A stretch of 32,000 nucleotides of DNA from the NCBI GenBank assembly GCA_964551475.1, contig CAZKCI010000027.1, positions 45,050-77,049 on the forward strand. Reading direction: 5' to 3'. The stretch is from an uncultured bacterium (GTDB lineage Bacteria; Auribacterota; Erginobacteria; Erginobacterales; CAZKCI01). Positions 5,093 to 5,134 of this stretch are shown here, in pieces. A program made the position numbers and the translations under genes. Position 1 is the first letter of the stretch, and each line of letters begins with the position of its first letter. The notes under the pieces were generated by a model. It had not been told where the DNA came from. It worked only from the letters and a program-made list of their open reading frames with translations, and ran no database searches.

Positions 5093-5134
5093 TGATCAGT
5101 AATCAATAATCAGCAACCTATAATCTATAATCCT
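5093..5134. repeat. Degenerate heptamer tandem array (TAATCAN x6) between convergent genes
   Basis: TGATCAG TAATCAA TAATCAG CAACCTA TAATCTA TAATCCT, read directly at 5093-5134. Confidence 0.8.

Follow-up and report, generated by a model that had tools for sequence, protein, structure and literature searches.

The window analysed here is a stretch of 32,000 nucleotides (G000:C27:45050-77049) of a 3.44-Mb draft genome with 62.8% GC, obtained from a sediment metagenome and called G000 below. Genes were predicted with our own codon-usage gene finder (2672 genes, 83% coding) and tandem repeats were called with TRF, both in the window and in the whole genome, the division into intergenic and coding DNA following these gene calls. 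The spacers of the window contain short tandem arrays, nine of which had been listed in an earlier note on this DNA. All nine are present and all lie between genes. Eight were detected by TRF, and the one at 12213-12247, too degenerate and below the threshold of the program, was recognized by comparison with the sister species (G001) and with a strain variant. The cited stretches are also AT-richer than the coding DNA, as had been claimed, with 26-46% GC (57% at 23051-23140) against 64% for the window. Neither the inverted pairing of arrays nor the recurrence of their words throughout the genome appeared in that note. The features are the following (the repeats have no strand):

253-319: AAAAAGCKC 9-mer array with an inverted tail (TRF at 253-275, period 9; fold z -2.7)
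1450-1482: TTACGYAACC 10-mer array, compact hairpin (TRF at 1454-1482, period 10; fold)
2643-2742: octamer hairpin dyad in a divergent spacer, GGAAACAT x4.6 against TTTCCATA x3.6 (TRF, fold)
5085-5134: one-sided degenerate heptamer array of the GTAATCA/TGATCAG type, 5-6 units (TRF)
7359-7493: hairpin dyad, AAATCCG x7 (7359-7406) against TTTCGGA x4.6 (7441-7493) (TRF, fold)
12210-12247: array of the TGATCAC family (sequence, comparison with G001 and a strain variant)
18450-18485: GATTATA array, two perfect plus degenerate units (TRF at 18450-18465, 2.3 copies)
21855-21971: palindromic dispersed element of ~120-130 nt, GGGTAAGG/CCTTACCC type (look-alike loci, fold)
22566-22607: left cassette arm, CAGGAGCGG x4.7, in inverted orientation to the right one (TRF)
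22687-22986, minus strand: PF05635 domain (23S_rRNA_IVP or S23p, a four-helix bundle) (profile search of the genome)
23057-23141: right cassette arm, TTTCCTGCGC x8.7, listed in the earlier note as a 10-mer array (TRF period 10, score 142)
26986-27050: hairpin dyad, AGGAAACC against TTCCTGGG (TRF at 26986-27005 and 27030-27050; fold z -4.8 for 26975-27060)
31057-31127: GGATTTT-type units followed by ATCTGAR x4 (TRF at 31093-31119, 3.9 copies)

One pair of these arrays (22566-23141) encloses a small gene of the PF05635 (S23p) family, an orphan family with a relative in Avd, the accessory protein of DGRs. The gene is found in a gap of 51% GC left open by the gene finder, with an oxidoreductase gene and a hexapeptide-transferase gene of a polysaccharide locus as neighbours and not inside a 23S rRNA helix, and its domain scores 71.9 bits against a Pfam cut-off of 33.8. 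The only PDB match of the protein was 2GSC, the protein XCC0516 of Xanthomonas campestris. Its entry has five chains, and it has been described as a homopentamer (PMC4990558). The two arms are inverted with respect to each other, share the core GCAGGA/TCCTGC and pair in the predicted RNA fold (both MFE and centroid, z -3.1). From its start at 23034, the PF05635 ORF continues without a stop codon up to the hexapeptide-transferase frame. The region 21973-23034 (minus strand) can be read as a single open frame of 353 aa, in which the left-arm array becomes a Pro/Ala/Ser linker; the fusion may be genuine, or else the frame is a pitfall for annotation.

The remaining arrays of the window are of two kinds. 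The hairpin dyads fold at z -4.8 to -9.2. The one at 7359-7493, whose left arm has 7.3 copies according to TRF, reaches -60.9 kcal/mol (z -6.5, 7355-7498 folded), and 7360-7493 has 26 other look-alike loci in the genome. The octamer dyad (TRF period 8 at 2643-2679 and 2709-2742) reaches -59.8 kcal/mol (z -9.2, 2625-2755 folded) and has only two. The one-sided arrays (5074-5133, 12216-12258 and 18439-18514), with z about +1, are slightly less structured than their shuffles. The array at 5085-5134, for which no secondary structure was predicted (fold z +1.06), occupies a 60-bp spacer flanked by two convergent gene ends; TRF gives it period 7, with 4-5 copies and 74-77% matches, at 5085-5132. Positions 5087-5113 resemble 20 other loci in G000, and a PF05635 cassette in genome G013 has arms built from the word of 5085-5113, GTAATCA. 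The array at 12210-12247 begins at the upstream gene's stop codon and lies 11 nt before the ribosome binding site of a FliG-like gene, with 10 other look-alike loci for 12216-12246. The 699-aa protein encoded at 12259-14358 (plus strand) combines the FliG middle and C-terminal domains with an MgtE_N-like stretch, in a polysaccharide-synthesis neighbourhood.

The stretch 31093-31121 has 44 other look-alike loci, and the word of the 31057-31127 array is the arm word of two cassettes, L115 in G000 and L157 in G001. The words at 2643, 253, 1450, 18450 and 26986 are nearly unique in G000, although that at 1450-1482 is the arm word of a cassette of the sister species (L161). A stretch of 16 nt, CCTATAATCTATAATC, is identical in 5116-5132 and 18451-18470, in two different spacers and in opposite orientation, so that two of the words cited as different are related. 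The palindromic element at 21855-21971, absent from the list of the earlier note, has related copies at 19697-19849 and 9982-10112; the three have 111, 35 and 17 look-alike loci, respectively, and elements of this type fold at z -5.3 and -3.2. The same palindromic family flanks another PF05635 gene of the genome (L117, G000:C106:16782-17102).

At the level of the whole genome, TRF found 300 period-7 arrays in intergenic DNA and 141 in coding DNA, a 10-fold difference in density, so that the enrichment suspected from one locus is real and extends well beyond it. The intergenic density was 8.8-fold that of coding DNA for period 8, 5.2-fold for period 10 and 15-17-fold for the double periods 14 and 16, and periods 3, 6 and 12 favoured coding DNA. 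When the intergenic DNA was shuffled preserving dinucleotides (10 shuffles), only 12 period-7 arrays were obtained against 294 in the real sequence, i.e., they are about 25 times commoner than expected; the figures were 206 against 16 for period 8, 199 against 16 for period 9 and 178 against 22 for period 10. The distribution of periods peaks at 7 and declines towards 11. An array was present in 43% of the same-direction, 50% of the convergent and 36% of the divergent spacers of at least 20 bp. Only 5-8% of the intergenic bases lie inside arrays, however, so that describing the spacers as systematically built from such repeats goes too far. In the order-level relatives we found 10-22 period-7 arrays per 100 kb of sampled DNA in four genomes and 5.3 in a fifth, compared with ~3 in four genomes from more distant parts of the phylum. 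The trait is thus real and non-local, and marks the whole order but not these last four.

The position of the arrays within the spacers is also far from even. Their density per kb was 3.0 in convergent, 2.5 in same-direction and 1.5 in divergent spacers. In the same-direction spacers of G000, 112 single arrays lie within 15 nt of the upstream stop codon against 63 expected, and no enrichment of single arrays was detected at the downstream start codon (63 against 62 expected). Several single arrays of the AATGGTG family nevertheless end exactly at an ATG start (…CACCATG…), too close for a Shine-Dalgarno sequence to fit, for example C105:11358-11389 and C93:527-556. The orientation of the words with respect to transcription had no general bias, with 91 of 134 arrays in the commoner orientation of their own family and 11:12 in the largest one.

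The earlier note had described the arrays as sharing an architecture but built from unrelated words, a view that the genome-wide comparison contradicts. The 300 intergenic heptamer arrays share only 95 canonical words, the largest families being ACTGATC (equivalent to TGATCAC; 45 arrays), AATGGTG (17), AAGGCTG (15), AAATCTG (ATCTGAA; 14) and AAATCCG (ATCCGAA; 13), and octamer and decamer families reach 30-51 arrays each. Several of the words of the window recur at 10-44 loci, in some cases with conserved flanks. In the TGATCAC family two opposed arrays have conserved palindromic flanks, and this family has a gene-bearing copy in the sister species (cassette L144). In most single-arm arrays, such as those of the AATGGTG family, the units are common to the different loci and the flanks are not. 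The arrays are also frequently paired: an inverted partner within 150 bp was found for 28% of period-7, 53% of period-8, 15% of period-9 and 48% of period-10 arrays, and for <1% when the unit was shuffled.

The association between arrays and PF05635 genes is not restricted to the window. G000 has nine PF05635 matches, seven of them over the cut-off and one in the window, and a strict automated test identified inverted array arms at six of the nine, two more being recognizable by eye. Each armed gene has a different arm word. Among 505 other small genes of G000 only 10 had such arms, so that the association with PF05635 is ~30-fold higher. In relatives, 19 of 28 and 11 of 20 PF05635 genes were armed, and copies with internal stops are found in relatives as well. 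To connect these arms with the gene-less arrays we have used exact words, since matching with one mismatch was too permissive (shuffled words fitted many arrays). The exact arm words of the G000 cassettes cover 95 of the 891 intergenic arrays, where 2.4 would be expected with shuffled words, and words seen only in the cassettes of G001 cover 86 further arrays against 2.8 expected, including ACTGATC (45) and AAGGCTG (15). For the largest families, AATAGGATTG (51 arrays) and AATGGAGT/AATACTCC (51), and for AAATCCG (13), there was no gene-bearing copy among the sampled cassettes, and the words at 2643, 253, 18450 and 26986 matched none of the cassette arms found. Along the order, the protein score is correlated with the distance between arm words (Spearman -0.31, none of 2000 permutations as extreme). 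Protein pairs with a word distance of at most 1 have a mean score of 144 bits and the remaining pairs 52 bits, figures that overstate independence because related genomes inherit both genes and words. In two small samples the two features were out of step: G009 reached 11.7 period-7 arrays per 100 kb with no PF05635 match, and G013 had 4.0 per 100 kb despite its 14 PF05635 genes.

A way to see how the arrays change is to compare G000 with the sister species, which is syntenic over the entire window at ~80% nucleotide identity. Where the word is the same, the arrays differ in copy number, with 3 units at 12213 against 4 in G001, 2 against 4 at 18451 and 4 against ~19 at 31093. A minor strain contig from one source metagenome run has one additional heptamer (CTGATTA, +7 nt) at 12211, together with three nearby SNPs. 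The number of units changes by whole units between species and strains, consistent with the slippage that had been invoked in the earlier note. Other sites differ by much more. The arrays at 253, 2644, 5093, 7361 and 26986 are missing or replaced in G001, often as clean blocks: the matching spacer of 253-319 measures only 45 bp and has no array, the 2643-2742 dyad is missing as a block, the 5085-5134 array is lacking, unrelated sequence takes the place of the 7359-7493 dyad and, at 26986-27050, where a strain variant was also seen, the dyad is missing and the flanking genes abut. At the site of 23057-23141, G001 has 9-mer arms. The word at 1450 is kept in G001 as a dyad with a loop of ~100 nt, and in this loop lie 46 nt in common with the inner flank of the L161 cassette. 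Altogether, among 73 arrays in 156 matched spacers of the two species, 16 keep their word, although half of these differ by one unit or more; opposite 27 there is another array, and 30 have no counterpart. Opposite 18439-18514 of the window, G001 (C14) carries a 3.8-kb insertion with ordinary-looking genes, with a GATTATA array at one of its boundaries and ~14 GATYTGA units at the other.

The cassettes themselves are also present or absent as whole units. Two cassettes of G001, L160 and L159, face clean, array-free empty sites in G000. Opposite a third lies a mini-dyad that has the word of that cassette but no gene, L144 faces a gene-less dyad of another word family (C73 of G000) and one more faces an unrelated GC-rich hairpin. 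At two sites common to both genomes the cassettes are strongly diverged. In one matching site, G001:C49 (L126) against G000:C32 (L111), the flanks are 86-90% identical, the proteins 61% and the arms differ, which means either replacement of the cassette or very fast evolution. No target-site duplication was visible at the L160 and L159 filled and empty pairs and the cassette contains no transposase; neither an enzyme nor an act of movement was seen at the filled and empty sites examined. Blastx of the dyad loops of the window gave no gene or protein remnants. G000 has four PF01797 (RAYT-type) matches. The arrays described here are tandem units rather than REP-like single palindromes, and the one weak RT-domain ORF of the genome has no bearing either way on retro-mobility.

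Inverted arms accompany PF05635 genes outside the phylum as well. A tblastn search of 72,556 plasmids retrieved 23 records with PF05635. Cyanobacteria contribute about 20 of these, among them 10 from Nostoc and 4 from Calothrix, and six of the eight loci inspected had inverted repeat arms around the gene (Nostoc edaphicum, Anabaena sp. 90, Calothrix PCC 7716, N. punctiforme, Gemmatirosa and Azospirillum lipoferum). The arms of Gemmatirosa are octamers, the armed copy of A. lipoferum lies inside the 23S rRNA and is a true IVS, and in N. edaphicum the arm word appears also in gene-less arrays beside neighbouring genes. Heptamer-armed four-helix-bundle genes are located between cas6 and cas4 in Anabaena sp. 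90 pANA02 (L173) and Pseudanabaena galeata pPg_01 (L176), and between nrdB and nrdA in N. edaphicum pNe_5 (L172); 23S_rRNA_IVP genes have been described in cas loci (PMC3936711).

These observations taken together make it probable, at roughly 0.6 in our estimate, that the arrays are largely the arms, the gene-less hairpins and the decayed single arms of IVS-like PF05635 cassettes, resized by slippage. Each cassette is a small PF05635 gene placed between two inverted tandem arrays, each cassette lineage has its own unit word, and the sites are intergenic, mostly just past stop codons. Cassettes would be gained and lost as whole units. A cassette may decay first to a gene-less hairpin dyad, of which 7359-7493, 2643-2742 and 26986-27050 are putative examples, and the dyad may then become a one-armed degenerate array such as those at 5085-5134 and 12210-12247, with replication slippage adding or removing whole units at all stages. 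When co-transcribed, the paired arms would form long stems resembling the RNase III-cleaved stem of the 23S rRNA IVS. We infer the direction of decay, the movement, the RNA processing and the recognition of the arms by the protein. Most single arrays share units but not flanks, so that their descent from cassettes is only putative. Also counting against this reading are the failure to see an enzyme or a target-site duplication, the large families with no gene-bearing copy in the sample, the window words that fit no cassette arm found, the dyad loops devoid of protein remnants and the arrays of G009, a relative with no PF05635 match. The claim that no element had spread fits poorly with words that are those of PF05635 cassette arms and with cassettes that are present or absent whole between sister species. 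A more ambitious version, which we consider tentative and rather doubtful, is that the pentamers of PF05635 (S23p/Avd-like) proteins recognise their own arm units, one per subunit, and that by spreading or maintaining the arms they are the source of the STRR/LSSR heptamers of cyanobacteria, Xanthomonas, Geobacter and this lineage, the gene-less arrays being non-autonomous or relic copies.

The alternative that survives best, though still unlikely, is that the host uses these sequences as transcript elements, the dyads acting as terminators or REP-like stabilisers of 3' ends and the single arrays as platforms for RNA-binding regulators, like the TAACTGA repeats of Beggiatoaceae. The preference of the arrays for post-stop positions and for convergent and same-direction spacers would agree with such a role, as would the strong predicted stems and the precedents in the literature (PMC4679880, PMC4692102). 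Contigs assembled from one metatranscriptome span 18351-18524 and 31026-31142 and fit co-transcription, but the RNA library may hold DNA carry-over. Against a host role, most families lack an orientation preference (the 91 of 134 and 11:12 given above), start codons are not enriched, and the turnover is fast for a functional element, the word being kept in only 16 of the 73 arrays and 30 having no counterpart in the sister species. Two more specific versions can be discarded, a strand-specific RNA function by the lack of a general orientation bias of the words, and unstructured translation leaders by the 63 against 62 single-arm arrays at starts.

The explanation favoured in the earlier note, that arrays arise one by one through local slippage and persist because their structure or periodicity is selected for (DNA bending, nucleoid-protein binding), without any element spreading, appears to us quite unlikely. 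Slippage accounts well for the whole-unit differences between species and strains, and the AT-richness of the arrays, the words at 2643, 253 and 18450 that are nearly unique to one locus, and the 27 of 73 matching spacers that retain an array while its word changes would all be expected from it. It does not account for words that recur far beyond chance, some with conserved flanks, for entire dyads and cassettes that are present or absent as blocks or for the ~30-fold association with PF05635 over other small genes. Bending in phase with the helix is a particularly poor fit, since periods peak at 7, drop towards 11 and are not concentrated near 10.5. Finally, that arrays and hairpins came first and PF05635 genes home into them, as IVSs do into rRNA helices, the arrays not being derived from cassettes, is very unlikely: it would explain cassettes and gene-less dyads with different words in the same spacers of the two species (L144 against C73), the divergence of L126 and L111 within similar flanks and the arrays of G009, but random homing would not make protein similarity track arm-word similarity across the families of the order, and two filled sites face empty sites without any arrays.

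To our knowledge, tandem heptamers in the spacers of bacterial genomes have been on record since 1990 with no origin or function assigned to them, and the S23p family of rRNA intervening sequences is equally unexplained. In G000 these two unexplained features meet, the arrays and the arms of S23p cassettes being built from the same words. If the derivation from cassettes is true, it would provide an origin, open to testing, for a class of repeats widespread in bacteria and a candidate nucleic-acid target for the orphan S23p family. There is a practical side too. Short-read contigs of the source runs end at arrays (12154-12288, 27033-27084 and 31094-31122) with loose ends that lead to other loci, so that arrays fragment assemblies, and they can create spurious fused ORFs, for which 21973-23034 is a candidate.

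The arrays described here belong to the known LSSR/STRR kind of repeats, and the resemblance to STRRs that had been pointed out before is borne out by short, tandem, intergenic heptamers. LSSRs have units of 5-11 nt, among which heptamers are dominant (Mrazek, Guo and Shah 2007, cited in PMC4692102 and PMC4679880), and the arrays of G000 are likewise head-to-tail units within this range, beyond chance and over-represented in non-coding DNA. Their occurrence at high GC is not unprecedented, because heptamer LSSRs have been reported to be commoner in high-GC non-pathogens (cited in PMC4692102), with cases in Xanthomonas and Geobacter. Among them are the GGGAATC repeats of Xanthomonas and the GGGGAYT repeats of Nostoc (Rehm et al. 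2015, PMC4692102), the former with ~70 inverted pairs per genome, transcribed and variable in copy number. The arrays of G000 have in common with them the genome-wide tandem heptamers in intergenic excess, many in same-direction and few in divergent spacers, near stop codons and with variable copy number. They differ in having many word families instead of one, AT-richer words mostly without G-quadruplex capacity, enrichment also of periods 8-10 and words that match PF05635 cassette arms. Phase-variation SSRs, with units of 1-5 nt in ORFs or promoters, are a different matter, as the units here measure 7-10 nt and are placed outside ORFs, least often in divergent (promoter) spacers. The cassettes do not fit MITEs or other transposon-derived elements either, as no target-site duplication was visible at L160 and L159 and the cassette holds no transposase.

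In Geobacter metallireducens, four tandem heptanucleotides occur at 49 sites (Aklujkar et al. 2009, PMC2700814), some as paired tandem-repeat sites on opposite strands, and there are also five tandem MTYCTGA heptamers (PMC2700814). This is again a high-GC non-pathogen with paired tandem heptamers on opposite strands, but the elements were read as regulator binding sites or small RNAs, with no gene association (PMC2700814). The TAACTGA direct repeats of marine Beggiatoaceae, Cyanobacteria and Bacteroidetes, in 2-6 copies and with a patchy spread (MacGregor 2015, PMC4679880), are intergenic heptamers only one base off the commonest family of G000 (ACTGATA against ACTGATC). They consist, however, of one word, located mostly a few nt upstream of starts and almost never inverted, whereas the arrays here are on the stop-codon side and often paired. 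The STRRs of cyanobacteria, three tandemly repeated heptanucleotides in Calothrix PCC 7601 (cited in PMC4692102), are short, intergenic and of few families, and the PF05635 genes with inverted heptamer arms in plasmids of Nostoc, Calothrix and Anabaena add to the likeness; the phylum and the words are others, the top words of G000 differing from the GGGGAYT of Nostoc (PMC4692102). The LSSR, Xanthomonas and TAACTGA repeat papers (PMC4692102, PMC4679880) do not name the PF05635 family, and in the literature we found no published link between PF05635 and intergenic heptamer arrays beyond the IVS of Coxiella.

The IVS of Coxiella burnetii contains an S23p ORF within terminal inverted repeats that form a 28-bp stem (Warrier et al. 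2016, PMC4990558). Its 5' end has tandem GACAGAT heptamers, in two or three copies depending on the strain, and RNase III cuts in the first repeat (PMC4990558). It has been called selfish, with a decaying ORF, and ORF-bearing IVSs are also found in Leptospira and Xanthomonas (PMC4990558). The cassettes described here have the same plan, a PF05635 ORF enclosed by terminal inverted repeats predicted to pair into a stem, but they are placed between protein-coding genes, number nine per genome and have each their own arm word, and hundreds of gene-less arrays here carry the arm words of cassettes.
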